NCBI RefSeq assembly: GCF_963921235.1 | Contig: NC_086107.1 | Coordinates: 106,580,001 to 106,644,000, forward strand | Direction: 5' to 3' | Length of the DNA stretch: 64,000 nt | DNA from: Mobula hypostoma | Lineage: Eukaryota | Shown: positions 3,711 to 58,989 of the stretch, piece after piece | How positions within the stretch are numbered: position 1 is the first letter of the stretch | Layout: each line of letters opens with the position of its first letter | Notes under the pieces: model-generated | What the model was told of the DNA's origin: nothing | Seen by the model: the letters and a program-made list of their open reading frames with translations, nothing else | Databases searched by the model: none | Position numbers and translations under genes: made by a program

Positions 3711-3720
<10 letters not shown>

Positions 3721-22386: not shown

Positions 22387-22589
22387 AACAACAGGAATTC
22401 TGCAGATGCTGGAAATTCAAGCAACACACATCAAAGTTGCTGGTGAACGCAGCAGGCCAGGCAGCATCTCTAGGAAGAGGTACAGTCGCCGTTTCAGGCC
22501 GAGTCCTGACGAAGGGTCTCGGCCTGAAACGTCGACTGTACCTCTTCCTAGAGATGCTGCCTGGCCTGCTGCGTTCACCAGCAACTTTT
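22387..22589. mobile_element. Fold-back (inverted) Penelope terminal-repeat insertion
   Basis: Inverted arms around ~22500 and an exact TSD ATAACTTCACTCA at 22374-22386 and 22590-22602. Confidence 0.85.
22502..22537 (+). ncRNA. Minimal type I hammerhead ribozyme motif (Penelope-borne)
   Basis: agtc-CTGACGA-agg(gtctcgg)cct-GAAAC-GTC-gact: intact core, helix I agtc/gact, helix II, and a loop-less palindromic helix III. Confidence 0.72.
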
Positions 22590-25500
22590 ATAACTTCACT
22601 CACTTGCCCATCCATTGAGATGTTCCCACAACCAGTGGTCTCACTTTAAGGACTCTTTATCTCATTATCTCATGTTCGCGTCATTTATTGCTATTTATTT
22701 ATATTTGCATTTGCACAGTCTGTTGTCTTCTTCACGCTGGTTGATCTTTGATTGATCCTGTTATTGTTACTATTCTATAGATTTGCGGAGTATGCCCGCA
22801 GGAAAACTAATCTCAGGATTGTATATGGTGACAGATATGTGGTTTGATGATAAAATTTACTTCGGCTTTGACAATAGTTTTATAACAGCAGGGTAGAAGC
22901 TGCCCTTGAGCCTGTTGGTACATAATTTCAGTCTTCTCTCTCGTCAGCCTGATGGGAGGAGTGAGAAGCGAGAATGCCTGGAGTGGGCGGGCTCTTTCTT
23001 TATGTTCGTTGCTCTAGTGAGTGAGAGATGTAGTGAGAGATGTAGATAAAGTCCGTGGAGGGGGAATTGGGTCTTGTAATATGTTGAGACATATCTCTGC
23101 TGTTTATTGTGGTCCCAGGCAGAGGCTGTGAAGGTTTATATAAAAATTGGCAAGAGTTAACAGGAACATGCTGAATTTCTTTAGCCTCCTGAACATGTCA
23201 AGGTGTTAGTGCATTTTCCTGGCTGTGGTGTCAATGTGTTTGGGCCTGAGCAGGCTGTTAATGAGCAGGCTGTCCCAGGAACATGAAGCTCAGCTTCAGT
23301 ACCATTGATGTAAAGTGGAGCACATAGACCACCTCACGTCCAGAGGGATCTGAAATGGAATGTGTGGACCATCCCACATCCTGAGGGATCAGAAATGGAA
23401 CGTGTGGACCATCCCACATCCTGACCTCTTGACATAACATATTTACACAATATGCACTAACTAAGAACGCCTACAATTTAATCGTTCATCCATTCATTCA
23501 TTCATCTATCTGTTTCTTTATCTATCTATCTATTTGTTTATCTATCTACCTGTATGTCTATTTAGTTGTCATTTAGAGGTACAGCACGTTAACAGGCTCT
23601 TCCGGCCCAACGAGCCCACACCACCCAATTACATCCATGTGACCAATTAACCTGCTAACTCGTACACCTTTGGGATTTGGAGGAAACTGGAGGACCCAGA
23701 GGAAGCCCACACCGATCACGGGAAGAACGTACAAACTCCTCGCAGACAGTGGCGGAATTGAACCTGGATCGCTGACACTGTAATAGTGTTGTGCTGCTAT
23801 GCTAGAGATAGAGTCACGAAGTGTCTATTTTTTGATGGGCTTCAGTCCAGTTGGACCAATTTCCTCACCCACAACTTTCTCATCTAGCAATATTCTTTAA
23901 CGCCATCCATCTGGAATTGGTTTGATAAAAAAAATAAATGTTCAGGCATCATGATGGCTTACTACCACCCACAAAGCTGTTCATCTCCAGGACCCCTGCT
24001 GCTGGAGTCCATGTTTTTGTTACCTTGACTACTCCTGTCTGTTCCTCTGTTCAACCCTCCATAAAGCTGGAAGTCATCCAAAACTCTGCTCCCCATGTCC
24101 AAACCAGCTGATACGATTCACCCATGGCCCCTTCCCTCACTGACCCAAATTGGGCCTCATTAGGCAGGGTGATTTTGAAACCCCGCTCTGTTATCACTCC
24201 TTCTGACCTCTGTAACTTCATTTGATTCTGGAAACATCCGCTCTTTCAGTCCAAAGTTTAATCTTCCCACTGGACGGAACGAGATCTTCGACCACCTGAA
24301 ACCTCAGTTTCTGAGACCCCTCCCTAAACCCCCTGCCTCTCTTTTTTCTAACACACCCTAAATTCACTTATTTCTCTGAAATGTGGTTCATTGTTTGTGT
24401 TTTTTATTCCATCTCCTTTTGTTGCTCTGACATATTTTGTTTGGTTACCCTTGCGTGAGGCGCCTTGGTGCTCCCCGTGTCCTGACCAGCCGATACCATT
24501 CACCTATCGTAAACACAGAACTCTCTGCAGATGCTGGGGTCAAAGCAACACTCACAACACGCCGGAAGAAGGGCTCCGGCCCGAAACGTTGACTGATCGT
24601 TTCCACGGATGCTGCCCGACCTGCTGAGTTCCTCCAGCGTGTTGTGACCATTCACCCCTCGTCACGGACCCAAATTGGGCCTCATTAGGCAGGGTGATTT
24701 TGAAACCTCTCTCTGGTCTCACTTCTTCTGACCTCTGTAACATCCTTTGATCCTAGAAATCTCTGCTCTTTGTGGCAAGAGCGCTGTACTAATGCTAATT
24801 ATAGGCTCACCATGCCACATATCTGCATTCGTAAAGGTCGTCCAATTATTTAGGACTTATTTATTCAAAATATTTTCTTTTAATGATTAAAAAATGATGA
24901 ATATTTCATACTGCTGGAACATAGTCACAGAGAACAGCACTGTGGGTGGCGGTGAGAAGGTCCCCATTCACACTGCCTCATGCTGGCGACCTGCTAAGCT
25001 TTGGCCTATTTAACGAGCTCTGCAAACTCCCGTAGAAACTAATTGTGTTTCGTTCACTGTTTCACCCTCTTGCAACAAAACATCACATCTTGCAAAACAA
25101 GGAGAGGCTGCTCAGTTCGCTGTGTTTGTAACCACTCTGATGGAACAGCCCCAGATTAAGCCCACCCACTCACTTTCTCTACGTGCTCTACCATTTCCAA
25201 GCAAGTCCCTCTTCCTCATTCTCTCCTGATTGGCCCATGCTGATCTTAAATTAATTCCATTATCTTAATAGCTTTTCATTGTCCCTTATGGATCCTCTCC
25301 TGATCCACTGCTCCGAAATCTTCTCCATGTTGTGTGTTAAACCCTCTCCAACCCCAAACTAATCCCACCGTCCCACTTTTTCCTGTCGCACTGTTCCCCA
25401 CTGCTCCACTCTCACCCCCAGAGCCTGATTCAGTCCATAACTATTTCCAATATCCCGTGTCTCTCCATTGCCCAGTTGTCCAACCAATTCTGTTGTTCGA

Positions 25501-28159
25501 TAGCCATTGTTTCCCATTTGCTGCGCCAAAGGGAATAATGCTTTACTCATTTGCTCTAAGTGGTAAGAAAGCTGGCTGTGTCTCTCACCCACAATGGTTG
25601 GAGTTAATGGCTTCTGCAAGGAACACATGTTCAAAGTTCAAAGTACATTTATTATGAAATAATATTTATTTATTATTTATTCATAATGAATCTTTTTATC
25701 ATTTATTTATATCTATCCATCCACCTGTCCATCCATCCATCTATTTATCCATCTATCTATTTATCTATTCATCCATCTATATATCTATTTATGTACAATA
25801 ATTTATGAATATATGTCACCATATATTACCCTAAGATTTGTTTTCTTGTGGGCATTCACAGTAGGTATAAAGAAACACAATTGAGTGTTGTGAAGCAGAA
25901 ATACAATGTGAAATCCACTCACTTGTATTAAAGATTCAAAGTACATTTATTATCAAAGTACGTTTGCAATTTACAACCCTGAGAATCATCTTCCCCACAG
26001 ACAACTACGAAAACAAATAAAACCATGGAACTCGTTCAAAAAAAAAATCATCAACCTCCACATGCAAAAAAAAACAACAAATCACGCAAAAGGCAAAAAA
26101 AGAACAAGTGGAAAACGCAGAATATAAAACACAAAATCGAAAGAGGCCAGGCATATGTAGTTCAGCTCAGTTCAGTTTAATTTAGTGCTGTGTCATTCAT
26201 TATACGGCTACTTATTAATGTATCAACTTACACAAAATGCTAGAGGAACTCAATAAGTCAGGCAGCATCTACGGAGGGGAATAAACCACCTTGCTGCTAA
26301 TACACAACGCACTACAGCAACACTAAAATTCATTTTGATCACTGCCCAAAAATGGACTTCATTTCTTTATTCTAATTGAGTTCTTTTGGTAAAAATTGTG
26401 TCTTATTTATATGTATTTTATGTTTTTCTTGTGAATTTTTGTTACAAGATGCTAAGTGTCTGGCATGCTGCTATAAGTAAGTTTTCCATTGCACCTTTAG
26501 TGTGTACTTGTGTGTCTGACATATAAACTCGACCTGATAAACCAATTTACCAGTTTGTGGGAAAAAGAAACAGTTAATGTTTCAGGTCATTTCAGCATTG
26601 CATAGCTATTGCAAAGTGCAGAGCTGATAGGTGAAGGTTTCTCACCAGGAAACGTACTTTGCAATTGGTGTAATCTGCACAGTGGCGCCAAGTTGAATGT
26701 GCGCACACGCAGACTGAGACACACAGGCAGTTTGAGGAAGTAAGAGGGTTCTTGTGGTGCATAGGAATGTTTAAGCTCACAGTCTCCTATACAGCACAAG
26801 CATGATGTTGTCCACACACTATTTATTTATTGACACACAACATGGAGTAGGCTTTGAGCTACGCCACCCAGAAATCCCCCAATTTAATCGCAGAGCAATT
26901 TACAATAACCTGTGCATCTTTGGCAGGAGGACCCGGAGGAAACCCAGGTGTAAAGGGGGTGGGGGGGTGGGGGAGAACACACAATCTCCTCATCTCCTTA
27001 CAGGCAGAAGTGGGATTTGAACCCACGTTGCCAACACTGTGCGGCGTTGTGCTAACCACTATGCTACCGCGCCGCCCTGTGTTCGAACTTTCACCGGCGT
27101 CCGTTCACCCTCCACCCTCGCGTCCGCTGGCTACAATGGTCAGATTCTAAGAACTTCTGTTCTTTTGTTATCAAATCCGTCTCTTGCCTTCTCAGAGTCA
27201 AAATTGAGTTTATTGTCATTTGCACAAGACCATATACGCACAGGTGCAATAAAAAACTTACTTGTAGCAGCGTCATGGGTACAAAGCATCATATAATTAC
27301 AAGAAAAACGTAAATTATACACATGTGTGGGAAACCACTGATATTTTATTAATACCTTTTATAATATTTGTACTTTTTAACATATTCATGTAGTTTTCAC
27401 ACACTGGCAGAAAACGATAGAGTAGCTAAACTAACGGTTAATCGCCTTTCTCATTCTTCATTGACTAAGTGTTAGCGCATTACCCACATGACGTAATTTG
27501 TTTAATTTTGTAGCCCATTAACTATTCATTCCTACCTGAGGAATTTCTCTTATCTACAAAAATGGGGGATTTTTCAGAGGAACCATCGGTATTCTTTTGT
27601 CTTACACCCCTTAGCATTAATTCCCCTCTTAGCATCGTTTCTCACCTCTTTATTTAGGTTGCACAGTATTTGTACGTTTGTGCTCCAAAATAAACTGAAA
27701 TCTTTGAAATAAGACTGCTCGCCAGTTTTCCCTCCCAGAAGAACACTACGGATTAGAAAATAAATAACACGAGCAAGAACAGAATCGGAACTGAAAAAAA
27801 CCCATCTATTTTAGTGCAGTGATGCAAGATTTCGACGCTAAATCTTGGCAATTCCTTTACTCCTGCAGGTGCTGCTTTCTCCACTGAGTTGCTCTGGCAG
27901 ATTGCTCGCTGCTCCAGATTCCGGTATCTGCTGTCTCTTGTGGCTCCATCGCTTGTTCTGCTCCTCCCTGTGTCTGTTATCTCCTCCATCTCTGTCACAC
28001 CCAGAGATCTCAGTGCTTCGCCCTGCAGACTCTGGAAGTTCATCCCAAAGACCTCTCCATCACACCCTCATCCTTTGAATCAAGCATTTGATCCGTCTCC
28101 TTACAAACTTATGTGCATCTATGTAACATTTTGTTGAATAAGCTCAGACAGGGCATTGA

Positions 28160-28590
28160 GACAGTGTGGCACTCTCTCTGACAGTGAGACACTCCCTCAG
28201 TACTGTCCCTGTGTCAGTGACACTCCCTCAGTACTGTCCCTCTGACAGTGAGGCACTCCCTCGGTACCGTCCCTCCGACAGTGCGGCACTCCCTCGGTAC
28301 TGTCCCCCCGACAGTGAGACACTCCCTCAGTACTGTCCCTCTGACAGTGAGACACTCCCTCAGTACTGTCCCTCTGACAGTGAGACACTCCCTCAGTACC
28401 GTCCCCCTGACAGTGAGACACTCCCTCAGTACCGTCCCTCTGACAGTGAGACACTCCCTTAGTACCGTCCCCCTGACAGTGTGACACTCCCTCAGTAGCG
28501 TTCCTCTGACAGTGAGACACTCCCTCGGTACCGTCCCTCTGACAGTGAGACGCTCCCTCGGTACTGTCCGTCTGACAGGACAGCATTCCC
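28160..28590 (-). repeat. 33-bp minisatellite, about 12-13 units (CACTCCCTCAGTACYGTCCCTCTGACAGTGAGA)
   Basis: Visible periodicity and 11-aa periodic ORFs in several frames. Reverse complement of the 52.8-kb array unit. Confidence 0.95.
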
Positions 28591-31500
28591 TCAAGAATGC
28601 AGTGTGTGAATACAGCACACATGTATTTATGAGTACTTGGCCACACTTTGTAATGTTTTTCGCAGGGCGAATAATATATCACCTCCCATCACCTTGAATG
28701 CAGTACCAGATATGAACCAACCTCGGATACGGTTTCTCCAGACAGTTACTCCCCACCACACCCTTTCTCTGAAGTTGGTAGTCTTGCTTTCTGCAGGGTC
28801 CTGACAGAGGCTGAATATTGAAAAACTGTAAACAGAAGAGAAAGACTGTGTTTATAAAAATTAAAAACTGTGTTTGGTTCATTTGCAGTCATCTAACTGT
28901 AAAGATCTAACCCCCCATCTTTACAGTCAACTGCGCTCTGTAGATACCCGCCAATGTCTCTTTTGCGACTTCAACAGCACTACGAGCACATTCTCCTCAT
29001 CTGCATGTTGTGGGGACTGTATTTCCTGATATTGCAGCTGAGGTCAAACTGCAAAGTACTCAAAACACCCAAAATGCTGGAGGAACTCAGCAGGCCTGGC
29101 AGCATCTATGAGAAAGAGTACAGTCGACGTTTTGGGCCGAGACACTTCATCAGGATTCCTGAGGAAGGCCCTTGGCCTAAAAAGTCAACTGTACTTTGCT
29201 GCCAGGCCTGCTGAGTTCCTTCAGCATTTTGCGTCTTGCTTGGATTTCCAGATTCTGCAGATTTTCTCTTGTTTGTGATTGAAAAGTACTCAATTGGCTG
29301 TAAAGTGCTTTGGAGTTGGAGAAGGGTGCTAACCAGTGCTCCAATCTACAGTGGTAAAGGGTTGTGGAAGGAAGATGGGATGTTGCTTGGGTGCAGACGA
29401 ACAGATACTAGCAAGAAGGATGGGCTGAAAAGCCTCTTATCACCAGGACCTGTAGCTACTTATTTCCCGCCTATATGCCACTGGAGTTTATCACAGCAAT
29501 GAGGGTCCTCCATCTGTGGCGGTGTTCAGGGCTTCCTTCATCATGTCAGTAGCTTCCTCGCAGTTTCTACGACTGTCATTCTCGCAAGTCCCGGGTGGAG
29601 ACTCAGGAATACCGTCGCACTCAGATGCAGAAGGATTCTCCGTTGCTGTTTCCGTAACAATTTTGTTTGACCAGTCAGGATGGTTAGGCCTGTGCTGAAT
29701 ACCAGAACCACTCTCAGTCTGGCCTCTACCCTTTGACCTGTTTGGCATGGTGACCCTACCAAGAGCCAAAGCATGAAGTTCTGACTCCAGCCAACATCGC
29801 TCTCCAGGTCATTGAGCCTCCAAACCCTACCACAGGGTTGTGGTCCTCTTGGACCTGTACTAATATATATATTTTTAAAAACCTGAAGATGCCGGAAATC
29901 TGAAATAAAAGAGAGAGCACTGGAGTAAACAGCAGCATCTGTGGAGAGAGGAAAACAGGCTCTCTTTCCCTTCCCCAGAAGCTGCCTGACGTGCCGAGTA
30001 TCCTTAGTATTGTCTTTATCCTTTACTCTCTCTGTCTCATTTCATTATTTATTTCAGTAGCGCCTTTCATCATATTTATTGATTTATTTGTTGAGATACA
30101 GTGTGAAATATGCTCTTCCAACCCTTTGAGCTGGGCCACCCAGCAAACCCCTGATTTAATCCTAGCCTAATCACAGGATAATTTATAATGACCAACTAAC
30201 CTACCAACCAGTACGTCTTTGGACTGTGGAAGGAAACTGGAGCACCCGGAGGAAACCCACGCAGTCACGGGGAGAATGTACAAACTCCTTACAGGCAGCA
30301 GCGGGAATCTTACCCGGGTCGCTGGAACTGTAAAGCATCGTGGTAACCACTGTGCGGATGGCAGCATGTACGGTCAATAAAGATGTTCTGCGGTGCAGTT
30401 GTTTTCACTACTGGATCGATATGTCAACAGTGTGTGTGACAAATTCCTCTTCGGATGAGCAGGTGTTTCATTTTCACATTCGGTGGGACAGGACGTCCCC
30501 TGAGGCTGAGATCAGAGGTCTGAGCAAAACCGACCTCACCATATTACGGACAATAGTTACCAGCTGTACTAAGTCACCGAAACGAGAGATTCTGCAGGAA
30601 GTCTAGAGCAACACTCAGAAAGTGCTGGAGGAAAGTCAGGATGTAGTCGGTGAGCTTTGCTTCGGTGGGGGGGGGGGGGGGGGATGGGAGGCGGTTGCCA
30701 CAGTCTGAACTGCAAAGCCTTGCAAGTTATTGCAGCTTCTGCTAAACCCAGCGAACCTCAAACTTGCAAGCTAACTTCCCGCTCCACCTTTCGTGAGCTC
30801 CTCCCCCTTCCTTTCAATGGTGTTTAACCGCAGACCACTGCAACTGATGGCGGGTACTCAGCGACCCTCTGGCTCCCATCTTGGCACGACAAGCCCTCAT
30901 CGGTCAGGGCACTTCACTCCCAAAGTCCATCTGGCTACCCTTGACCTGGCCCACACTGAACTGGTTGACTTGACAGGTCCATTGGACACGGGAAAGCCGG
31001 CTACTCAGTCAGGTCAGTGGGAAAGCAAGTTGGTCCATAACACTATGAAAAGGTAATTACTGCCCAGGGGGGGAATAAACAGTCGACTTTTCGGGTTTGA
31101 ACTGCTCAGCCGATGAAGGGCCTTGGCTTGAAACGTTAGCTCTTTAATACTCTCCATAGATGCTGCCTGACCTGCTGAGTTCCTCCAGCACTTTGCATGT
31201 GTTACTCTGGATTTCCAGCATCCACAGAATCTCTCGTGTTCATAATTGCATGCCTTCTGGTATTAGAGTTGAAATGTCTAACAGCAGAGCGCATGCATTT
31301 ATTGTGTACTTAATATTTCAATGCTATTTGAAATATACTGTTTAATTAAGCACTCTTATTTGTTTAAATAATTAATTACAGGTTATATGTAAAGTTACTT
31401 TAATTGCCTACATCATTGTGCTACCACGTGATACGTGAAAAGTAAAGAACGAACGAGACCCGTATTTTCAGACTCCCGTGAGTTTCTTTGAACTAGTTAG

Positions 31501-31878
31501 ATGTTTTGAAGTTGCAAAACGTAACAGCTTTTAAAGTGAGAGGAGGGGTAAATTCAAAGGAGATGTGCTGGGCAGGTTTCTTACGTAGTGCGTGGAGGGG
31601 AACATGGGCTGTATTGTCTGGAGTGGTGATGGTGGAAGCAGAAAACAATCGAGTGGATTTTAGATAGGCACATGCACGTATAAAGAATGGAAGGAATTCT
31701 GCACTCTGGATTAATGTAGCTGGGCCTTTGATGACTAATATGATTAGTTCAGTACAACATCATAAAACACAAGGGGCTGGTCCCGTGATCTGCTGGTCTG
31801 TGGTCTATATTCCAATCGAGTTTGAATTCCTATATGCTTTTGAATAACTCAAGGTGCTTTATATCAATCAACTGTTTA

Positions 31879-32441
31879 CACTCAGTGACCATTTTATTAG
31901 TTACCTCCTCCACCGAATAACGTGGCCACTGAGTGTATGTTCACAGTCTTCTGCTGCTGTAGCCCGTCCACTTCAAGGTTTGACTGGTTGTGCATTCAGA
32001 GATGCTCTTCTGCACACCTCTGTTGTAATGGGTGGTTATTTGAGTTACTGTCACCTTCCTGTCATCCTGAATCAGTCTGGCCATTCTCCCCTGACCTCTC
32101 TCAATTAACAAGGCGTTTTCACCCACAGAACTGCTGCTCACTGGTTGTTTTTTGTTTATCGCAATCATTGTCTGTAAACTCTGTGCGCGAAAATCCCAGG
32201 AGATCAGCAATTTCCACGATACTCAACCCGCGCCCTCTGGCACCAACAATCATTCCATGGTCAAGGTCACTTGGATCACATTGGTTGCCCCATTCTGATG
32301 TTTTGGTCTGAACACCAGCTGAGCCTCTTGACCATGTCTGCATGCTTTTATGCATTGAGTTGCTGGCACATCATTGGCTGATTAGACATTTACAATAACG
32401 AGCAGATGTAGAGAGGCGCCTAATAAAGTGGTCACTGAGCC
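31879..32441 (-). mobile_element. Internally deleted Tc1/mariner element
   Basis: TIRs CACTCAGTGACCATTTTATTAG / CTAATAAAGTGGTCACTGAG with TA on both flanks. Minus-strand fragments MIVGAR..GLSI.EIADLLGFSRT and RMARLIQDDRKVTVTQITTHYNRG resemble the Tc1 transposase HTH region. Confidence 0.85.
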
Positions 32442-32449
32442 TATTCTAA

Positions 32450-32745
32450 AATGCAGCAACTCAGGAGACAAGTTGTACACAGGAAGCTCCCAGAAACCGC
32501 AAAGTGATAATGATCCATTAACTTGTACTCAGTTTTATTGATTAGGGAATAAATAGTACCCAGGAAGCCAAGGGGGACTTCCCAGTTCTTCATTTGAAAT
32601 TACACCATTCAGATCCACCTGAGAGAGACAGAAAAGGCCTCATCTGAAAGACTGTGCAACGGGCACTCCAGCACACCCACAGTACAGCCCGCAAAGTGAG
32701 ATCCGAACTGTTGCGTTCAAGTCTCGGAAGTGGGGTTTGAACGCA
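32450..32745 (-). mobile_element. Degenerate Deu-domain SINE remnant (SacSINE1/AmnSINE1 relative). Another at ~63670-63920
   Basis: Resembles the Deu-SINE consensus as I recall it (aagctcccacaaacagcaatgtgataatgaccag...gggataaatattggccagga). Not aligned computationally. Confidence 0.5.
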
Positions 32746-37257: not shown

Positions 37258-37295
<38 letters not shown>

Positions 37296-39332: not shown

Positions 39333-39368
39333 AGTCCTGATGAAGGGTCTCGGCCTGAAACGTCGACT
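39333..39368 (+). ncRNA. Minimal type I hammerhead ribozyme motif in a Penelope 3' end (~39115-39433)
   Basis: agtc-CTGATGA-agggtctcggcct-GAAAC-GTC-gact. Confidence 0.72.
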
Positions 39369-47210: not shown

Positions 47211-47324
<114 letters not shown>

Positions 47325-48965
47325 TGAGTGTTGGCAGTGCAGGATATCTCCATTGCAGAGCAGGTTACACCCTCCAGCTCCAAGTCAACACTCTTCTTCA
47401 CCAGATGGACTTAAATGGACAACGGTAAGTCAGCGTACAGAGAGGAAGTGGAGAGACTGGTGGACTGGGGTGAGAAGAACAACCTAAGTCCAAATGTGGA
47501 GGAGACCAAGGAAATCATTGTGGAAGGTGCAGATGAACCATCCCCCCCTGCAAATACATGGCACCTCCATAGAGAGAGTCAAATGCATCAGGTTTTTGGG
47601 AGTTCTCATCACAGATAACCTCACACCTGGTTCCTCAATATCACCCCCCCCCCGAACAAGAAGGCAGAGCAATGCATCCACTTCCTAAGGAGACTGAAGC
47701 AAGTGAGGCTTTCCCCCCACACACCCGCCATGTTAACTGCATCTTATAGGAGCACCATTGAGAGCATCCTGACAAATTGCATCTCCATCTGGTATGGGAA
47801 CAGCCAGGCATCGGACCGGAAGTTCCCTGTGAGAACAGGCGAGAGGATCATAGGGGTCCCCCTACCATCCATCGAGGACATTTATCAGGAATGCTGCACA
47901 TGCAGGGCCCTTAGTATTATTAAGGATCTCAGCCATCCATCCAGCATCCTCTTTGCCTTTCTACCATCAGGCAGGAGACTCCGATGCGTAAAAACAAGAA
48001 CGGTCAGGATGGGAAACAATTTCTTCCCTCAGACCATTAGGCTTCTGAACTCCCTGCTGCATCGCATTCGAAATGTCACTGATTAATCTGTTCTGTACCT
48101 GACAATATTTAATTTAGGCGATTGACTTTGTTTATTTATGCGTAGCTTGTCTGTAGATTTTTTTCCTTGCTTTGATAAGTTACTGTGTGTTGTGTCTGTT
48201 ATGTGTACAGCTGTACTTTACACCCTGGTTTGGAGAAACGTTGTCTCGTTTGGTGGTTTAAATGTAAATAGTTAAATTGTGTGGCTGTAAGGAATGGGTA
48301 AAGGATTATCACAGATAGAATATATTTAAAGAATCAACAGTTATAATATGCCAAAGAGCCCCCTTTAGTGTAGTACAATCCAATAATTCTCATCTACCAT
48401 TTGAGTTGTGGGGTGGAGATACATCTCTACCATAGGAGGTGGAAGGTTCTCCTTTCCTCCCCTAGCCTGCAGGTCACCCTTGGACAGGGTGTAGCTCCTG
48501 CTTACCACATCCACCACCTCCCCCCGACCACCGATCATGGTCACGTGAAGCCATGGGAACAGGTGGCAGATGGTCATATGAGCAACTGGTCCACATCACA
48601 AGTCCTGGTTATGTGACCACTGATGCCAGGCAAACAATCTCTGAAAAGTATCGATAATGGCTGGGGTTACCTGTCTTGTAAAGACACTGCCAAGAAGAAG
48701 GCGATGGCAAACCACTTCTGTAGAATAATTTGCCAAGAACAATCATGGTCATGGATAGACTATGATCGCGCAGGTCATATGACATGGCACATAATGACGA
48801 TGTCATACAACACGGTACATAATGATGATGATAATGACCAGTTGAGACTTTAGAGTCACTGGTTTACAGAACTGTGGCTGAGAGGAACCCCAGTCATCGG
48901 AGATGAGGACTTCCTTCACCTTAAACCAATAAGGCATCTTAATATTAATTTATTTTCTCAAACAG

Positions 48966-49085
48966 CTGGTTCCATGCTGGGATTGGCCGAAGCGAAGCAG
49001 AGAACATTCTTTTGGAGCAAGATTTGGGAGCCTTCCTCATCAGAGCCAGCCAGAGTTCCAAGAACGATTTCTCTATCTCAGTCAG
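48966..49085 (+). CDS. GRAP2: GRAP2 exon, first half of SH2 (WFHAGIGRSEAENILLEQDLGAFLIRASQSSKNDFSISV)
   Basis: Pyrimidine tract then aacag acceptor, donor CAG|gtatgt, 120 nt, phase 2 to 2. GAFLIRASQSS..DFSISVR is the FLVRES-equivalent motif in its GADS-type form. Confidence 0.96.
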
Positions 49086-49799
49086 GTATGTAGCACGCTT
49101 GGAGTACAGACTCTCCCTAGTGAAGGGCATTGTCTACTTGCTCTCAGCTTTCATGAAAATGATCCCGGGAGTGTTTAATGGCTCTGGGCCTGTACTCACT
49201 GGAGTTTAGAAGAATGATGGGGGATCTTATTGAAAACTATCAAACATTGAAAGGCCTAGACAGAGTGGATGTGGAGAGGATGTTTCCTGTCATGGAGGAG
49301 TTTAGGACCAGAGGACACAGCCTCAGAATTAAAGGACATTCTCTTTAGAACAGAGATGAGGAGGAATTTCTTTAGCCAGAGGGTGGTGAAGCTGTAAAAT
49401 TCATTGTCACAGACAGCTGTAGGGGCCAAGTCATTGGGCATAAAGTGGAGGTTGATAGGTTCTTGATTAGTAAGGGCGTCAAAGGGGAGAAGGCAGGAGA
49501 ATGAGGCCGAGAGGGATAGTAAATCAGCCATGATAGAATGGTGGAGCAGACTGGATGGCTAAATTCAGCTCCTGTATCTTATGGCTGCGTTACTGTGGAA
49601 TAATATAGCACAGAAAACAGGCCATTCAGCCCCCAGCACGTGTTCTACCCCAGCCTGATTTTTGCACGCAAAAGGGATGCAAGTCAAGTAAACAGGTCTG
49701 AATTATGATGGCAAAGATTCTGAACTCATGCCACTGTTTCATGTGGTAATCGGGAGCTCGGATGATTCACTCAGAGACAAAGATCAGAACTAAGATTAG

Positions 49800-50560
49800 A
49801 CACAAGAGATTCTACAGTTGCTGGAAATCTTGAGCAACCGAAGTGCTGGGAGAATTCGGCAGGTCAGGCAGCTTCTAAGAACCAGCAAGGCCTCTTTGTC
49901 TTACGTCCCATTGCATTTTTGCTGGTTCTTAGAAGCTGTCAAAATGCCGGAGGGGAATAAACATGCAGGTTTCCAGCTGAGACACTTCATTGGGACTGGT
50001 GAGAAAGGGGACAAAAGCCCGAATAAAAAGGTGGTGAGAGGAGGAGGAGTACAAGATGGCAGGTGACGGTTGAGACCAGTTGAGGGTGAAGGTGGTGAGT
50101 GGGGGAAGAGTGGGGGCATGAAGTAAGAAGCTGGGAGGAGATAGGTGAAACAGGAGGAAGGGCTGAAGATGAAGGAATCTACAGGAGAGGACAGTTGAGC
50201 GTAGGAGAAAGTTAAGGAGGTGGAGAACCTGAGGAAGGCAGTGGGCAGTTGAGGAGACGAGAAGGGGTGAGATGGCAACCAGAATGGGGAATGGAAACAG
50301 AGAGAAGGAGGGAAGGTGAAGAAATTGCCATAAGTTAAAGAAATCAGTGTTAATGCCATCAAATTGGAGGCTACCTTGATGGAATATAAGGTGTTGTTCT
50401 TCCAACCTGAGTGTGCCCTTTTTCAATCATTGCAGTGGATGAAGACATGTTGGAATGGGAATGGGAAGTCAGACTGAAATGGATGGCCACCAGGGGAACC
50501 CGGCTTTTGCAGCAGATAGAGCAAAGGTGCTCATCAAGGCAGTTCCCCCATCTGTGTTGG
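49800..50560 (-). mobile_element. Older degenerate Penelope 3' fragment. Similar at 11341-12060 and 12980-13400
   Basis: Minus-strand TLRLEEQHLIFHQGSLQFDGINTDFFN is the same GIY-YIG tail, followed by the family's pyrimidine-rich UTR. Confidence 0.75.
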
Positions 50561-52536
50561 GTATTAATATTAGAATTGGGGTCCAATTGCAGGACTTATT
50601 ATAAGATGCACTGCAATTGGTGGTTAGACCAATTGATGGATAGTTACTGGTTGTCTGATGAATGGACAGAGAGAAGGATTGACTGAATGCATCAGTGGGT
50701 GATAACTAATTGATTGATAGCTCAACAAATAGATAAATGGACAGATTGTTGGTTGGATCAATGGAATCTAAGCATGGATTTAATCAATTAGATTCAGCAA
50801 TGGCGTCGACTTCACAGCTGTTGTGGTGGTTAATAGAGTCGTCCCTATGCTGTTCAGTTCGTTGCTCCCACACGGGAAGAGTTCCCCATGCAAAGTTATC
50901 AATAAAAGTTAAGTAGAAAATCCTGCAAGCTGACATCGTGGTGTGCTCTGTACTATCCCTCAATGTCGAACACAACAACAGCGACACCTCAAACAAATTT
51001 GCAAAATAACCGAGAGGAGTGCAGAACTGAGACTTTCAACAGCACGAAGAAGATAATGCTGTTTGAGGGCGTCAAGAAAATGGGAATGAGATTGAACACT
51101 GGAATTGGAAGGCAGTGCAGCAGATAGTGCTGTTGCCTCACACCCCCAGAAAGCCGGGCCTGAGCTTGCTGTCAGTGGGGAATTAGTGTGTCCTCTCCGT
51201 GACTATGTGAGTTTCTCCTGGGTGATCCGGTTTCTCTCTCTTTCTAGGCGTGAGCTGGCAGGGTTAACAGGATCCTGTAAACAACTGGCAAAAGGAGGAT
51301 GGCTATGAGCCAGGAAAATAGGAGGTGAAATTGGACTGATGCGATTGTACTCCTGAGAGTTGATTGGCCTCCGTCTACACTATTGTTGGAAAACTAAACA
51401 GATTTGGAAAGCTAAACACTTCATTCTAAAGGGGGTGGAACAGTAATGTGGTGGTTAGCACAAAGCTTTACCGTACACGCAACCTGGGTTCAATTCCCGC
51501 CACTACCTGTAAGAAGTGTGTACGTTCTCCAAGTGGGTTTCCTCCGGGTGCTTTGGTTTCCTCCAAAGACCAAAGTTGGTAGGTTAATTGGTCATTGTAA
51601 ATTGTCCTGTGATTAGGCTAGGATTAAATTGGGGCATTGTCAGAAGGGCCTATTCCATGCTATATCTCAATAAATAAATGAATAAAGTTAAAGGCAATGT
51701 ATCATGATGCAATAGTTATCCCACAATAAATCTGAGCATTGGAACATGAGCTAGGTTGACTTGCCAAGTGAGGAGATGACTTGTTTGAGATAAATATGCA
51801 AGAAGCAACAATTTGGTAATTTGGGAATTCATTTTTCGCAACCTAGTCATCCCTGTACTTGGTATTTGCATGAGAGATAGACACTCCATGCAAGGAAGCA
51901 TTATGGAATCAAGGTGGGCAAGTGGAATTACCTGTGGATTTCGTGACCTTGTTGAATAAGTGAACAAATGCAATAAGATGAATGGGTTCCCTTTGTCCTT
52001 TGACGGCCTTGACACATGGTGGTTGGATCTCTTAGCAACATGGAGGTGTTGCACTCAGGCGTACTTAAATGGAATCAATTCAATTTTAATTGTCACTCAA
52101 CCATACATGAGTAGCCATAAATGCAGTCAAATGAGACCCCATTACTCTGGGGTCAAGGTGCAAAACACAATACCAACAGTCATGCACAGCACAAAGCACA
52201 TAAAGGTTTAAGAAAGATACAGACGGCCATGCAATAAGAAGTCTATCAATGCTGCAGAAATCTACAGTCGACCACAACAGAGCTTGTCTTTCTGCCGAGC
52301 GAACAGCCTTGCACATCAGTAACCAAACCAAAATCAATGGCAAAAAAAAAGAGACAGAGTTTTTACAACATTGCAAAAGACTACCATCGAGCGTTTTACT
52401 CAAGAATAATCCCAAATTCTTTCAGAACAAATCTAAACATGATCTCTTGTGCCTTTACCAGACATTGGTGCTCCAACTTGGATTGCTTCAGGGTTCTGGA
52501 ATTATAATTGCATTGCTAACAGATCCTCAGTTATAA

Positions 52537-52737
<201 letters not shown>

Positions 52738-52816
52738 TAGCAGTCCAAGTTCAGATTTCTGAGGCTGTAAAGTTCAAAATGCAAATTGATGGATATTTTC
52801 ACCTGCCATTTCTGTC

Positions 52817-53703
52817 CAGTACTGAGGGAGTGCCTCACTGTCGGAGGGACGGTACTGAGGGAGTGTCACACTGTCGGAGGGACGGTACTGAGGGAGTGTC
52901 TCACTGTCGGAGGGACGGTACTGAGGGAGTGTCACACTGTTGGAGGGACAGTACTGAGGGAGTGTCTCACTGTCGGAGGGACGGTACTGAGGGAGTGTCA
53001 CACTGTCGGAGGGACGGTACTGAGGGAGTGTCACACGGTCGGAGGGACGGTACTGAGGGAGTGTCACACTGTTGGAGGGTCAGTAGTGAGGGAGTGCCTC
53101 ACTGTCGGAGGGACGGTACCGAGGGAGTGCCTCACTGTCAGAGGGACGGTACCGAGGGAGTGCCTCACTGTCGGAGGGACGGCACCGAGGGAGTGCCTCA
53201 CTGTCGGAGGGACAGTACCGAGGGAGTGCCTCACTGTCGGCGGGACGGCACCGAGGGAGTGTCTCACTGTTGGAGGGACGGTACTGAGGGAGTGTCACAG
53301 GGTCAGAGGGACGGTACTGAGGGAGTGTCACAGGGTCAGAGGGACGGTACTGAGGGAGTGTCACACTGTCGGAGGGACGGTACTGAGGGAGTGTCACACG
53401 GTCGGAGGGACGGTACTGAGGGAGTGTCACACTGTCGGAGGGTCAGTAGTGAGGGAGTGCCTCACTGTCGGAGGGACGGTACCGAGGGAGTGCCTCACTG
53501 TCAGAGGGACGGTACCGAGGGAGTGCCTCACTGTCGGAGGGACGGCACCGAGGGAGTGCCTCACTGTCGGAGGGACAGTACCGAGGGAGTGCCTCACTGT
53601 CGGCGGGACGGCACCGAGGGAGTGTCTCACTGTTGGAGGGACGGTACTGAGGGAGTGTCACAGGGTCAGAGGGACGGTACTGAGGGAGTGTCACAGGGTC
53701 AGA
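52817..53703 (+). repeat. 33-bp minisatellite, about 27 units, with a 363-bp (11-unit) higher-order duplication
   Basis: Unit GTACTGAGGGAGTGTCTCACTGTCGGAGGGACG. Identical ORFs recur at a 363-bp offset (53064-53267 versus 53427-53630). Confidence 0.96.
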
Positions 53704-55358
53704 AGCACTGTTTTGCAGAGTAGATGCTGCACTGTCAGGGGAGTTCCCTGTGTCGTGTTAAACCAAACCTCCTTGTTCCCATTGAGGTTGACATTAAAAT
53801 TTCGCTGACACTATCTTACATTGGAGAATCTCCTCTGCACAGTACTCCCTCAAATCATGCAAGGGTCTTTCAGAGAGCCCTCCTTCATGAACATTTTTCA
53901 TCTGGGTGAGAGATTGATCCTAGAGAAGGTTAAAAGGTCATCTCAACATGTTGGACTGGAGGGACTATACTATTCTAAATCCTGTGCCCAAAAGAGCAAG
54001 TCTTGTCAGGAAGAGAGGCGTTTGGGAAACTGGTTTGGAAAGAAGGAGGGAATATGTTTTGGACCACGATGGGTGCATATGCAAATCCAGTCAGAAGACA
54101 CGGAACTGGTGTAACTTCACTCTGACACATTCACATTAGTTCAAAGTAAATGCCTTTGATAGTTTCTAGGAACAATTTGCATGCACTGCCTCAGGGCTGT
54201 CAGGGTTGGGCAAGACCACAGATGAAAGCCAAGGAATGAACCTTGAACCTCTGGTTCTGGGTGCAGGTGGGGGGGAAGAGGGAGGAGAGGGGAGGCCGTG
54301 GGATGGGAGGGTCCAGTGTAAGACAGAAAGTGGGTGTACATCAGAGTCACAGAGAGACACAGAACATCTTCTTTGTGGACTGGGTTCTCACTGACCATGA
54401 TTACTCTAATCCTGCTGTGTATTTGATACTCCTGTCGTATATGGGTATATTGTGGGTGGTGGGGTGGAGACACGTCTCTACCAAAGGAGGTGTAAGGCGC
54501 TCCCTCACTCCACTAGCCTGCATGTCACTTTAGGCAAGAATTAACACCTGCTTAGCACCCCCCCCCCCCACACACCAATCAGGGTCACGTAAAGCCATGG
54601 GAGCAGGTGGTGGGTCATATGAGCAGCCGGTACATATCACAAGTCCTGGTTATGTGACCACCGACACCAGTCAGACAATCTCTGAAGGGTATTGATAATG
54701 GCTGGGGTCACCCGTCTTGTAGACACTGCCCAGAAGAAGACAATGGCAAACCACTTCTGTAGAAAAATTTGCCAAGAGCAATCATGATCCCCACATCAAG
54801 GTGATGGCGATGATGAGCCAGCACCGCCATTCACTGTGATCATGGCTGATCACTCACAATCAGTATCCAGTTCCTGCCTTATCCCCATAACCTTTGATTC
54901 CGCTATCTTTAAGAGCTCGATCCATCTCTTTCTTGAAAGCATCCAGAGACTTGGCCTCCACAGCCTTCTGGGCAGAGCATTCCATATATCCACCACTCTC
55001 TGGGTGAAAAAGTTTTTCCTCAACTCCGTTCTAAATGGCATCAGCGGGAACATGCTTCCTGCCTCCAACGTGTCCAATCCCTTAATAATCTTATATGTTT
55101 CAATAAGATCCCCTCTCAGCCTTCTAAATTCCAGAGTATACAAGCCTAGTCGCTCCAATCTTTCGACATATGACAGTCCCGCCATCCTGGGAATTAACCT
55201 CGTGAACCTACGCTGCACTCCCTCAATAGCAAGAATGTCCTTCTTCAAATTTGGAGACCAAAACTGCACACAGTACTCCAGGTGTGGTCCAGGTGTGGTC
55301 TGGAGTCACAGTCACAGTCACAGTCGTGTGAGTGAAATCTTTAAAAAAAGGGATGGAT

Positions 55359-56270
55359 CCCATTATGATAATAACCTACATCAAAGTTGCTGGTGAACGC
55401 AGCAGTCCAGGCAGCATCTCTAGGAAGAGGTACAGTCGACGTTTCAGGCCGAGACCCTTCGTCAGGACTAACTGAAGAAAGCCTGACGAAGGGTCTCGGC
55501 CTGAAACGTCGACTGTACCTCTTCCTAGAGATGCTGCCTGGCCTGCTGCGTTCACCAGCAACTTTGATGTGTGTTGCTTGAAATTCCAGCATCTGCAGAA
55601 TTCCTCGTGTTTGCGATGATATTAACCTCCCTCTTTGCTGGAGAAATTGTGGAAATCAAAATGCAAACCATTATCATATCTTCTGGGATTGCCCCGTTAT
55701 CAAAGACTATTGGAGTGGGATACACAATGCCCTACAAGACATTTTTAAATGTGAAGTACCCTTTTAGAAAGTAAGACCATATATTTTGAGTATGTACCTC
55801 AAGAATGGTTGAAAAGAGATAAATATTTAATGAATATACTGCTGGTGGCTGGTAAAAAGACTCTTACCAGGAAATGGTTATCTCAGGAGAGCCCAACTTT
55901 AAACACATGGATGGAAATTACAATGGACATTTACAAAATGGAGAAGATAACAGCATCTGTTAATCATAAGTTGAAACAATTTCATTCATACTGGGAAAAA
56001 TGGTTCAACTACATAACACCTCATAGGCCTGATTTTATTCTCACAAATCAATGAATATGTTGTAAAAAAGATCACTCCCTACTTGTACATGGTTTTCTCC
56101 TTTTGCTTGTTCTTTCTTTCCCCTCTTTTCTATAGGTGTACACCTCAGATAAATATTATGTTGAGATTTGTGGCAAATATGATTATATGACATATATGTG
56201 CAATATCTGAAATACATCTTATGGAAGTGTTTGTTTGATGATGAACTTCAATAAAAATTACAAAAAAAAG
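55359..56270 (+). mobile_element. 5'-truncated L1-clade LINE with a nested fold-back Penelope insertion (55378-55615)
   Basis: Encodes CWRNCG...HIFWDCP, the L1 ORF2 cysteine-rich C-terminus, through ...YWEKW. AATAAA plus A-tail at ~56250-56270. TSD AAAAGGGATGGAT at 55346-55358 and 56271-56283 in a TT/AAAA context. Confidence 0.85.
55434..55469 (-). ncRNA. Minimal hammerhead motif on the minus strand. An inverted partner core lies at 55483-55514(+) with a truncated helix I
   Basis: The reverse complement reads agtc-CTGACGA-agggtctcggcct-GAAAC-GTC-gact. Confidence 0.68.
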
Positions 56271-56897
56271 AAAAGGGATGGATTGATTGAGCAAGCTGGG
56301 GCTTTTCTCTTTGGAGAGAAGGAGGATGAGAGGTGACTCAGTAGAGGTGTATAAGATGATGTGACATAGACGGAATGGATAGCCACAGATTTTTTCCCAA
56401 GGTGGAAGTAAATTCCTGTGCAAAAGTCTTAGGCACAAATATAGCTCAGGTGCCTAAGAGTTTTGCACTGTACTGTATTTGTCAACATGAAGCGGAGAGC
56501 GAGTTTGTAAATCTAGTGGAATCAAAGGATGTTGGGAATGGCACTGTGGGAAGGGTGTGGGACAGGTGGCAGAGAAGGAGTGGGGGGGGGGAGTGGTATG
56601 GGTGCAGGCACATCCAGCCCTGAGACACCAGGCAAGGTCATTTGATTCCATACAATTGGTTTATTGATCATTACAGAATGTCTCTCTGGTGCTTCCCACT
56701 TCCTCCCCTCTCCCTTCCCCTTTTCCCAACCATGATTCCCCTCTCCCTGCCCCCTTCCCACTCTCAGTTCACAATAGAGACCCGTATCAGAACCAGGTTT
56801 ATCATCACTCACATATATCATGAAATTTGTTGGGTTTTTTTTTGTGGCAGCAGTACAGAGTTACATAAAATTACTACAGTTCCATGCAAACGTCTTT

Positions 56898-57110
56898 GCC
56901 GGCTGGTGGCGTAGTGGCATCAGCGCCGGACTTCAGAGTGAAGGCTCCCGAGTTCGAATCCGGCCGGCTCCCTTGCACGCTTTCCATCCGTGCTGGGTTG
57001 AGCATCGAGCTAGCAACTCAGCCTCGTAAAAATAAGAAAGCCTGCAAAAAAAACGCCGTCATGACAGCGTCCCGATGACTCCACTGGGAGTTAAGGGCTT
57101 TCTTCTCCTT
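56898..57110 (+). mobile_element. tRNA-headed SINE. Related head at ~43327-43400
   Basis: A-box TGGCGTAGTGG and B-box GAGTTCGAATCC, followed by a non-tRNA body. Confidence 0.65.
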
Positions 57111-58022
57111 CCTCTTCATGCAAACATCTTAAGCACCCTGGTTATATATGTGTACCTAAGACTTCTGCAAAGTACTGTTGCTGTACAAGGAGGGTTAATC
57201 TTTAAGTGTTTGGAGGAAAGTATAGGGCAGATGTAAGAGGTAAGTTTTTTAAACAGAGTGTAGGTGTGTGGAACACTCTGCCAGAGATGGCATTGGAGGC
57301 AGATACATTAGGGGCATTTGAGAGACTCTCAGATAGGCACAAGGATGCAAGAAAAATGGAGGACTAAGTGGGAGGGAAGAGTTAATTAATCTAAGGGTAG
57401 ATTAAAGGGCTGGCACAACATTTCAGGCCAAAGAGTCTGTATTGTGCAGTACTGTTCCATGAATTCCCAAGAAGAAAATCGGGAGGGCTAAAAGAGGGCA
57501 TGAGGTTGCTCTAGCAGAGAAGGTGAAGGAGATATGAAGAGCAAAAGGATAGCAAGGTACAAAATTGGTCTTCTTGAAGATTGACTATGCATGGAGCCAA
57601 AAGAGGTGTTGGCGATCTTAAATGTATTTTTTGCATCTGTATTTACTCAAGAGACAGTCACAGAGTCTGCAGAAGTGAGGCAAACACCAGCAAAGTCATG
57701 GACCATATATGCTTTACAGCGTAGGAGATGTTTGCTGTCTTGAGCCAAATTAGGGTGGGTAAATCTCCAGGGTCTGACGAGGTGTAACTTCTGATATTGT
57801 GGCAGGCTAGAATAGAAATTGCAATGGCCTTAGCAACAAGTGAGATGCTGGAGGATTGGAGGATAGTTAATGTGGTTCCCTTGTTTAAAAAAGGCTCTAA
57901 GAAATAACTGGGAAATTATAGGCCGGTGAGCCCGACATCAGCAGTGGGTGTTATTGGAAGATATTCTAAGGGACCAGATATATAAGTACTTGGATAGACC
58001 TGGACTGATTGGGGATAGTTAA

Positions 58023-58989
58023 GCAGCACACATCAAAGTTGCTGGTGAACGCAGCAGGCCAGGCAGCATCTCTAGGAAGAGGTACAGTCGATGTTTCGGG
58101 CTGAGACCCTTCGTCAGGACTAACTGAAGGAAGAGCTAGTAAGAGAATTGAAAGTGGGAGGGGGAGGGGGAGATTCAAAATGATAGGAGAAGACAGGAGG
58201 GGGAGGGATGGAGCCAAGAGCTGGACAGTTGATTGGCAAAAGGGATATGAGAGGATCATGGGACGGGAGGCCCAGGGAGAAAGAAAGGGGGAGGGGGGAA
58301 GCCCAGAGGATGGGCAAGGGGTATAGTGAGAGGGACAGAGGGAGAAAGAGGAGAGAGAGAGAAAGAATGTGTGTATATAAATAAATAACGGATGGGGTAC
58401 TAGGGGGAGGTGGGGCATTAGCGGAAGTTTGAGAAGTCCACGGCCTCCTCTACTGTAAAGATGAAGCCACACTCAGGTTGGAGGAACAACACCTTATATT
58501 CCATCTGGGTAGCCTCCAACCTGATGGCATGATCATTGACTTCTCTAACTTTCGCTAATGCCCCACCTCCCCTCGTACCCCATCTGTTATTTATTTATAT
58601 ACACACATTCTTTCTCTCTCTCTCCTTTTTCTCCCTCTGTCCCTCTCACTATACCCCTTGCCCATCCTCTGGGTTTTCCCCCCCTCCCCGCTTTCCTTCT
58701 CCCTGGGCCTCCCGTCCCATGATCCTCTCATATTCCTTTTGCCAATCACCTGTCCAGCTCTTGGCTCCATCCCTCCCCCTCCTGTCTTCTCCTATCATTT
58801 TGGATCTCCCCCTCCCCCTCCCACTTTCAAATCTCTTACTAGCTCTTCCTTCAGTTAGTCCTGACGAGGGGTCTTGGCCCGAAACGTCGACTGTGCCTCT
58901 TCCTAGAGATGCTGCCTGGCCTGCTGCGTTCACCAGCGACTTGGATGTGTGTTGCTTGAATTTCCAGCATCTGCAGAATTCCTCATGTG
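58023..58989. mobile_element. Large fold-back Penelope insertion (~415-bp inverted arms)
   Basis: 58023-58439 is the reverse complement of ~58535-58955, with the GIY-YIG tail as spacer. TSD tggggatagtYaa at 58010-58022 and 58990-59002. Confidence 0.88.
58857..58892 (+). ncRNA. Minimal type I hammerhead ribozyme motif (Penelope-borne)
   Basis: agtc-CTGACGA-gggg(tcttgg)ccc-GAAAC-GTC-gact, with a G-C pair closing helix II. Confidence 0.72.

Follow-up and report, generated by a model that had tools for sequence, protein, structure and literature searches.

Minimal hammerhead motifs around GRAP2 in a Mobula ray: probable relics of a Penelope-like element

The GRAP2 Region and Its Hammerhead Motifs

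The window, that is, the whole 64-kb stretch of DNA analysed here, carries part of GRAP2 of a Mobula ray on the + strand. This gene identity had been put forward by a sequence-only reading of the same DNA and is borne out by matches to the exons of the SH3 domain, the SH2 domain, and the linker:

44806..44865, + strand: repeat-derived segment with which the coding part of annotated isoform X2 of GRAP2 (P0027) begins
47233..47323, + strand: GRAP2 exon, second half of the N-terminal SH3
48968..49086, + strand: GRAP2 exon, first half of the SH2
52555..52723, + strand: GRAP2 exon, second half of the SH2
62259..62717, + strand: GRAP2 linker exon

A strict minimal-hammerhead descriptor (helix I of at least 3 bp, CUGANGA, an optional extra base, helix II of at least 3 bp, GAAA-X-Y-U-H, and a loop-less helix III) returned five motifs in the window, four on the + strand and one on the - strand, compared with 0 matches in 200 Markov-2 shuffles; a looser hammerhead pattern gave 10 matches, with 1.39 expected by chance. 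These five are exactly the copies that the sequence-only reading had named as intact (22502, 35442, 39333, and 58857 on the + strand, 55434 on the - strand) when it proposed such a search, and the predicted cut positions also agree:

22502..22537, + strand: descriptor-complete minimal hammerhead, C3 at 22506, predicted cut after 22533; forms the + arm of an insertion built as an inverted repeat
35441..35478, + strand: descriptor-complete minimal hammerhead, C3 at 35446, predicted cut after 35473
39332..39369, + strand: descriptor-complete minimal hammerhead, C3 at 39337, predicted cut after 39364; its copy (~39104-39434) stands alone and lacks a tail
58856..58893, + strand: descriptor-complete minimal hammerhead, C3 at 58861, predicted cut after 58888; in the + arm 58440-58995
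55433..55470, - strand: descriptor-complete minimal hammerhead antisense to GRAP2, C3 at 55465; arm of an inverted pair
15470..15506, - strand: older copy with an intact core, first pair of helix I mismatched

The core (CUGANGA and GAAA..UH), the closing of helices I and II, and the location of the ends within helix I are those of a type I hammerhead. In 5/5 descriptor motifs helix III is the palindrome ACGU without loop 3, as had been described, and in 5/5 one base is inserted between A9 and G10.1. The older copy had been singled out for its intact core and weaker helix I (~15470-15503, - strand); the core is indeed intact (15478-15502), and the weakness is an A.A mismatch at the first helix I pair. 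What had been overlooked is a further intact core at 55483 (+) and the inverted-repeat arms of several copies. An Rfam search placed no hammerhead family among its 24 matches at E<=1; its miRNA-family matches, which score below the gathering threshold and mirror the hairpins described below, were set aside.

Given the position of the linker exon, 55434, 55482, and 58857 fall within the intron before it. The first GRAP2 coding exon was not found in the window by a motif search, among ATG..GT candidates, or by tblastn of the first 27 residues of P0045 (best E=3.7), so that the first coding exon of isoform X1 would lie upstream of the window. All four + strand copies are therefore likely intronic in X1, which is firmer than the earlier view that only 58857 was certainly so. 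In isoform X2, by contrast, 58857 is the only one of the four to be included; the X2 coding start lies downstream of 35442 and 39333. In four runs guessed to be RNA, the share of the 47100-49200 words present was 0.09-0.15, and these runs provide no evidence of GRAP2 expression.

A Highly Amplified GIY-YIG Penelope-Like Element

The motifs are the pLTR end of an abundant, highly amplified GIY-YIG Penelope-like element. An iterated profile gave 40 matches in the 64 kb (3492..63451), 37 of them at E<1e-5, a few of the 40 being overlapping halves of single insertions. They are dispersed copies of the same retroelement end, mostly mutated and 60-130 nt in length; all 12 mutated copies listed earlier are present, although their total had been underestimated. 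One insertion includes the GIY-YIG endonuclease region:

35069..35575, + strand: retroelement 3' end, with the last GIY-YIG codons, a pyrimidine-rich UTR, the hammerhead, a downstream box, and a tail
34640..35068, - strand: inverted 5' partner with a GIY-YIG endonuclease region, 93% identical to the Mobula hypostoma RT-EN protein P0001

The GIY-YIG match at 34684-35142 (-) has a Pfam E of 3e-4, slightly short of the curated cut-off. Among proteins, the fragment is closest to RT-EN sequences of rays and sharks, which carry YIDD and a C-x4-C-x2-C linker; the identity to P0001 holds over the query length, and the linker is present in P0001 and P0006. The hammerhead sits 3' of the GIY-YIG C-terminus both in 35069-35575 and in 58440-58995, which together with these homologs upholds the Penelope origin proposed at the outset. 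Assignment to the Neptune clade is likely, on the protein sequences, with the RT known from homologs only and the window's fragment retaining just the last linker Cys; a CX2-5CxxC zinc-finger-like RT-EN linker is the Neptune criterion, and Nematis has the linker motif too (PMC8557442). The window holds no intact element ORF, and the interval from 35442 to 39333 showed no RT or EN match, which ruled out a full element there.

The abundance of the repeat is apparent from a 751-base stretch around copy 39333: in three runs, each from a different organism, it matched 141,286, 85,493, and 38,021 contigs, with contig depth peaking over the hammerhead region. Among the rows listed in the contig comparison (there were 79 more), those inside the ribozyme were at N7 and 11.1 only, both tolerated positions. 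None of the contigs listed for relatives spans the 39333 insertion or the corresponding empty site. A metagenome search with a 20-base flank motif gave 27 loci; the longest match was 32 nt, none continued into the element, and they were attributed to chance.

Insertion Architecture

Target-site duplications of 10-14 bp with at most one mismatch flank 7 of the 9 insertions tested. Copies lie on both strands, frequently as inverted pairs with a tail, judged by eye, on one arm only. Besides 34640..35068, intact motifs are accompanied by these partner arms:

22388..22506, - strand: partner of the 22502 copy in inverted orientation, beginning inside helix II and having a tail; 13-bp target-site duplication at 22374 and 22590
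55482..55610, + strand: partner arm of the 55433 copy, with an intact core but no 5' strand of helix I; full pairing with that copy's arm is predicted
58013..58438, - strand: the other, inverted arm of the insertion that holds 58857, with 94% identity over 366 nt; this arm's own hammerhead has A in place of G16.2

The 55433 pair is flanked by duplications at 55365 and 55616, and the large inverted insertion whose + arm holds 58857 is flanked by a 13-bp duplication at 58010 and 58990.

The 5' ends of short copies gather at the 5' edge of the ribozyme (10/28). Starts at the cut site are not enriched among them (2/28, p=0.47), and the idea that cleavage defines the 5' ends was accordingly rejected. 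Reverse transcription of the short copies would start ~95-125 nt downstream of the ribozyme and would then run to the RNA 5' end or to a splice junction at helix I; we hold this route only tentatively, at somewhat less than even odds. As to a spliced-RNA origin, inspection by eye showed no upstream exon sequence common to the short copies. The pile-up at helix I rather than at the cut site bears on the copying mechanism of Penelope-like elements.

Conservation and Age of the Copies

Every intact copy is a member of the youngest subfamily, in which 5 of 6 complete copies are intact. In neutral simulations with CpG x5 and 1-2% divergence, P for this share was 0.45 and 0.11, and it fell to 0.023-0.003 at 3% divergence or CpG x10; the observed flank differences are 9/324, some of them common to several copies. 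The intact share is thus somewhat high under some neutral settings. Within the young copies, core and flank box have changed to similar extents (1/81 vs 3/220, p=1.0).

A comparison of core with flanking positions had been suggested as a means of refuting ribozyme function. Over all copies in the window, non-CpG core positions are better conserved than flanks (17/245 vs 659/2898 mismatched, p=2e-10), a result that is expected from selection on the element, yet is also compatible with host selection, so that the comparison does not tell the two apart. In older copies, core CpGs decay as other CpGs do, with mismatches at 42-45% (8/18, 18/43, and 10/22), compared with 29-32% at loop-2 and helix-I CpGs.

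Predicted Folding in the GRAP2 Transcript

Nearest-neighbour folding, which leaves out core tertiary energy and proteins, predicts a helix I pairing probability of 0.00 in context for all four + strand copies. The arm 22388..22506 is predicted to pair with the 3' half of the 22502 ribozyme in the + transcript, and 22502 and 58857 are both predicted to be sealed in long hairpins (MFE -183 kcal/mol over 331 nt and -914 kcal/mol over 1001 nt, respectively) whose partner arm is transcribed first. The 35442 and 39333 copies are predicted to misfold: the open hammerhead fold has P ~1e-6 for these two motifs in 80-300 nt of context, and P<=0.02 even for the 38-mer in isolation.

Inert Relics or Active Ribozymes

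Most probably (about 0.88), these hammerheads are truncated terminal-repeat pieces of an amplified GIY-YIG Penelope-like element, likely of the Neptune clade, that lie inert in likely GRAP2 introns. Selection on the active retroelement would have preserved the core, which would act there either as a dimer or with help from the element's protein; once inserted, the core would decay neutrally. In GRAP2 pre-mRNA, the upstream antisense arm would capture 22502 and 58857 during transcription, while 35442 and 39333 would take other folds; negligible cleavage is predicted for these reasons. In published work the minimal hammerhead is inactive as a monomer and weakly active as a dimer or trimer (PMC4209133), and the ribozyme of an anole element cuts only with the element's protein and is dispensable for insertion (PMC11167929).

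The insertions might instead act on GRAP2 by other means, as double-stranded intronic hairpins (editing substrates) or through cryptic 3' splice sites upstream of the core. The inverted arms reach ~420 nt at 94% identity, long copies have a polypyrimidine tract and YAG immediately before the core, and the intron of a D. virilis element ends at helix I (PMC4209133); the annotated isoforms P0027, P0045, and P0028, however, use none of these sites. Such an effect, which is compatible with inert ribozymes so that both may hold, is improbable, if less so than the readings that follow.

Occasional collateral trans-cleavage of solo intact copies, by way of other nuclear RNA copies or the element's protein and with no selected host function, has rather poorer prospects. 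Protein-assisted cutting is established for the anole element, and the repeat is very abundant and turns up, as 5,896 contigs matched to the 39333 stretch, in a run that is RNA only by guess. That guess, and the lack of strand in the contigs, weaken the latter point; moreover, anole RNA-seq showed no reads ending at the ribozyme cut site (PMC11167929), and both the lack of enrichment of copies starting at the cut site and the lack of an intact ORF in the window count against it. Slightly less probable again is that introns of ray genomes contain intact minimal hammerheads in such numbers that expression of a Neptune-like protein would let solo copies, 35442 and 39333 among them, pair either in cis over 3.9 kb or in trans with other nuclear RNAs and cut host pre-mRNAs, that of GRAP2 included; a retrotransposon protein would then act as a switch of intron cleavage throughout the genome. 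Were the element's protein to help intronic copies in this way, it would amount to a new kind of transposon-host interaction, which is purely hypothetical here.

The original proposal, that intact sense copies dimerise in cis and cut GRAP2 introns co-transcriptionally, is very improbable. In practice it comes down to 35442 and 39333, two complete cores in sense orientation within what is likely a single intron. A strand-swapped dimer with 14 intermolecular pairs can be drawn for them, their spacing of 3891 nt is near the ~3 kb of ribozyme pairs in whole elements (PMC4209133), and some support might come from the somewhat high intact share and from CPEB3, an intronic ribozyme known to tune its host mRNA (PMC10919898). 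Against it, the active dimer is predicted to lie ~9-10 kcal/mol above a pair of misfolded monomers and ~17 kcal/mol above an inactive dimer, even adjacent dimers are weakly active in published work, the other two sense copies are predicted to be sealed, the coding start of X2 is downstream of the pair, and strand bias is absent (19 + vs 21 - profile matches, p=0.87; 4 + vs 1 - intact copies, p=0.375).

Comparison With Known Systems

Inert Penelope-like relics of this type belong to an already described class of element, of which the cartilaginous-fish family is a further example. Like the minimal hammerheads of metazoan Penelope-like elements (PMC4209133), the Mobula motifs have a loop-less palindromic helix III, a helix I of 4-5 bp, an extra base between A9 and G10.1, and a G10.1 whose pairing partner at 11.1 is C or U, and they occur mostly as solo dispersed copies with some close opposite-strand pairs. 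Their helix II, however, is short (3 bp and a U-G pair, compared with 7-8 bp in Schistosoma), and many young copies have G10.1-U11.1. Names of sharks, skates, and chimaeras were not found in the searched supplement text of that paper, and a literature search gave no paper on Penelope in Mobula or on a hammerhead ribozyme in an elasmobranch. With its many near-identical copies, the cartilaginous-fish family offers useful material for learning what Penelope hammerheads do.

The Poseidon element PAc of Anolis carolinensis (PMC11167929) shares the pLTR hammerhead, the GIY-YIG C-terminus, and two 3' end positions ~30 nt apart 3' of the hammerhead (the tail), whereas the Mobula family, known from sequence alone, has a Neptune-like CxxC linker and no start codon at stem II. 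EN+ elements of the Neptune clade (PMC8557442) are similar in their heavy 5' truncation, inverted 5'-truncated partner, one-end tail of 30-40 bp, and CX2-5CxxC RT-EN linker; unlike in that clade, microsatellite targeting is not evident at the Mobula junctions inspected by eye, and the window is without a full-length copy.

Non-LTR retrozymes, which have been reported in one chondrichthyan genome (bioRxiv 10.64898/2026.07.22.740005), also have type I hammerheads in short non-coding pLTR-related repeats (PMC7229834; bioRxiv 10.64898/2026.07.22.740005). They form head-to-tail tandem arrays, unlike the Mobula units: none of the 34 TRF rows of the window is a tandem array of the hammerhead unit. 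The amniote hammerheads of RECK, CTCL, and DTNB (PMC6155905) and the HDV-like ribozyme of CPEB3 (PMC10919898) resemble the Mobula motifs as self-cleaving motifs on the sense strand of host introns. These domesticated ribozymes exist in few copies, show deep conservation, and have either tertiary contacts, as in RECK and CTCL, or an activity that has been measured, as in CPEB3, whereas the Mobula copies are young members of a high-copy repeat that lack a helix III stem-loop and, given their low open-fold probability, are not expected to reach the active fold by themselves.

Minimal Hammerheads and Their Parent Retroelement

The hammerhead motif at GRAP2 is real and of a known kind. The four + strand hammerheads that the sequence-only reading had picked out are present in the sequence, and a strict minimal-hammerhead descriptor matches exactly five times in the window and 0 times in 200 shuffles, while a looser core pattern gives 10 matches vs 1.39 expected. 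The strict matches, placed by the core residue C3, are:

C3 22506, +, hammerhead (copy 22502), strict descriptor; predicted cut after 22533
C3 35446, +, hammerhead (copy 35442), strict descriptor; predicted cut after 35473
C3 39337, +, hammerhead (copy 39333), strict descriptor; predicted cut after 39364
C3 58861, +, hammerhead (copy 58857), strict descriptor; predicted cut after 58888
C3 55465, -, hammerhead (copy 55434), strict descriptor

In all five, helix I has 4-5 bp, a single extra base follows A9, helix II consists of 3 bp and a U-G pair, and the ACGU is loop-less. They agree with the Penelope minimal hammerhead in every feature that could be tested, whereas the features of tandem retrozymes, and those given for domesticated intronic ribozymes in the available text of two papers (PMC6155905; PMC10919898), are lacking. 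The hammerhead family is absent among the 24 Rfam matches in the window, and a literature search returned no paper on Penelope in Mobula or on a hammerhead ribozyme in an elasmobranch.

The surrounding repeat has 40 iterated-profile matches in the window, some of them halves of one insertion, with no strand bias overall (19 +, 21 -; p=0.87) or among intact motifs (4 vs 1; p=0.375). Upstream of the hammerhead, long copies carry a pyrimidine-rich UTR and, before that, a GIY-YIG endonuclease C-terminus. The longest coding piece, 34684-35142 (-), has a Pfam GIY-YIG match with E=3e-4, slightly under the curated cut-off, and its closest homologs are ray and shark proteins, headed by one from Mobula hypostoma (P0001, 93% identity). 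These homologs carry a reverse transcriptase (RT) with YIDD, which in P0006 matches RVT_1 at E=9e-5. They also have a C-x4-C-x2-C linker, a type described for both Neptune and Nematis elements (PMC8557442, in the part available). Target site duplications of 10-14 bp with at most one mismatch flank seven of the nine insertions tested, none being convincing at 34640 and 39104, and in head-to-head pairs, judged by eye, one arm has a ~30-nt tail and the other has none. This architecture is textbook for Penelope-like elements. Two older copies at 11338-11850 lie tail to tail with ~30 nt between them, the reverse of the usual arrangement.

Contigs matching 751 bases around copy 39333 number 141,286 in a DNA run, with 85,493 and 38,021 in runs from two further organisms. 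Summed depth is greatest in the hammerhead region, roughly a million-fold that of unique flank. These figures are not copy numbers and are read only as "very abundant". Several ray proteins containing the GIY-YIG region (P0003, P0005, P0008) bear host-gene names (divergent protein kinase domain 1C, mucin-2, receptor-transporting protein 3-like), which suggests gene models that absorbed the retroelement.

Position Within GRAP2

Four GRAP2 exons were matched:

47233-47323, +, GRAP2 exon
48968-49086, +, GRAP2 exon
52555-52723, +, GRAP2 exon
62259-62717, +, GRAP2 linker exon

Both Mobula proteins match the SH2 exon at 100% identity, and the number of linker repeats agrees with M. hypostoma. The linker exon codes a pentapeptide repeat (15-nt unit, 7.2 copies) that varies in number from ray to ray (P0027, P0028, P0029); one ortholog, from a skate, bears the annotation periaxin-like. 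The last SH3 exon and the first coding exon of isoform X1 (P0045), which was searched for, are absent from the window. Because the latter lies outside, all four + strand copies are likely intronic in X1, and the intron after the first coding exon apparently exceeds 47 kb (window 1-47232). Isoform X2 (P0027) has its coding start in the repeat at 44806, downstream of three + copies; copy 58857 is intronic in X1 and X2 alike. The X2 segment (44806-44865, +) belongs to a dispersed repeat with six further matches in the window and takes the place of the first half of the N-terminal SH3, and this start may be an annotation artefact.

Folding and Prospects for Cleavage

The sequence-only reading had proposed that intact sense-strand copies dimerize in cis and cut GRAP2 introns co-transcriptionally. 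Intact copies are indeed present and likely intronic in X1, but an active dimer is predicted to be disfavored and two copies to be paired off. Copies 22502 and 58857 each form the + arm of an inverted insertion, with an antisense arm upstream that transcription reaches earlier (94% arm identity over 114 and 366 nt, respectively), and in both the GAAAC-GUC half is predicted to be paired (MFE -183 kcal/mol over 331 nt and -914 over 1001 nt). The remaining candidate pair is therefore 35442/39333, 3891 nt apart. As isolated 38-mers, these are predicted to favor an inactive hairpin pairing G5-G8 with C15.2-C17, the open hammerhead fold having P=0.001-0.02, and ~1e-6 in 80-300 nt of context. The strand-swapped active dimer is predicted at -11.5 kcal/mol, less stable than either two monomers (-20.2) or an inactive dimer (-28.5); these energies are indicative only, because core tertiary contacts and proteins are left out.

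Published activities agree with this predicted poor cleavage. In the available portions of the sources, minimal hammerheads of Penelope-like elements are inactive as monomers and weakly active as dimers or trimers (PMC4209133), and a review gives very low rates, dimers included (PMC6765202); the anole ribozyme cleaves only when the element's protein is present, is not required for insertion in vitro, and has no RNA-seq ends at its cut site (PMC11167929). Most likely, the hammerhead copies are inert in GRAP2.

Long near-perfect dsRNA is predicted from inverted intronic arms at 58013-58995, 55372-55612, 22388-22590, and 34640-35190, a possible substrate for A-to-I editing.

Conservation of the Core

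Comparing core with flank, as the same reading had proposed, does find the core better kept in the 37 of 40 profile matches with E<1e-5: non-CpG core positions are off-majority in 17/245 cases vs 659/2898 in flanks (p=2e-10), the flank figure including subfamily differences and local alignment dropping decayed ends. This contrast shows what appears to be selection acting on source elements. Among 27 older copies, core CpGs (G12 8/18, C15.2/G16.2 18/43, C17 10/22) differ no less than other CpGs (10/34, 7/22, 3/17), and the core (1/81) is on a par with the best-kept flank box (3/220; p=1.0) among 10 young copies. Six complete young copies have 8/222 differences in the 37-nt ribozyme region vs 9/324 in flank. 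From these counts, post-insertion evolution looks neutral. All five intact motifs lie in young copies, and the intact share among complete ones (5/6) counts against neutrality: its simulated probability is 0.45 and 0.11 at 1-2% divergence with CpG x5, but 0.023-0.003 at 3% or CpG x10. The differences at N7, 11.1, and 39382 are inherited variants common genome-wide, so true private divergence is lower.

5' Ends of Short Copies

Ten of the 28 copies whose start falls at -19 to +70 relative to C3 (between 3492 and 63324) begin at -5 to +1 (p=3e-5 vs uniform), a window picked after viewing the data; the cut site is not enriched (2/28, p=0.47), and the other 9 of 37 copies begin further upstream. 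Among the 5' loose-end positions listed, 39333 is the largest (1592, 1445, 1213, and 158 contigs; flanks long and heterogeneous); the conserved helix I strand begins at this base. Older subfamilies with a different UTR account for part of the clustering. Long copies have a polypyrimidine tract plus YAG at the helix I edge, a context compatible with the initiator consensus, and this fits either a splice acceptor or an initiator. The D. virilis element has a splice acceptor at the corresponding point (PMC4209133, available part). RT would start ~95-125 nt 3' of the ribozyme, as in the anole element (PMC11167929, likewise), and run off at an RNA end of either kind at the helix I edge, which would explain the ~130-nt solo copies.

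Other Repeats

A 33-nt minisatellite occurs at three sites in both orientations (28176-28593, 52819-53692, and 61436-61499; 12.7, 26.5, and 1.9 copies, respectively), and a 68-nt tandem repeat (35841-36383) lies between copies 35442 and 39333. A weak tRNA-like Rfam match at 27002-27073 (-), at 27.9 bits under the 29-bit cut-off, is perhaps a SINE head.
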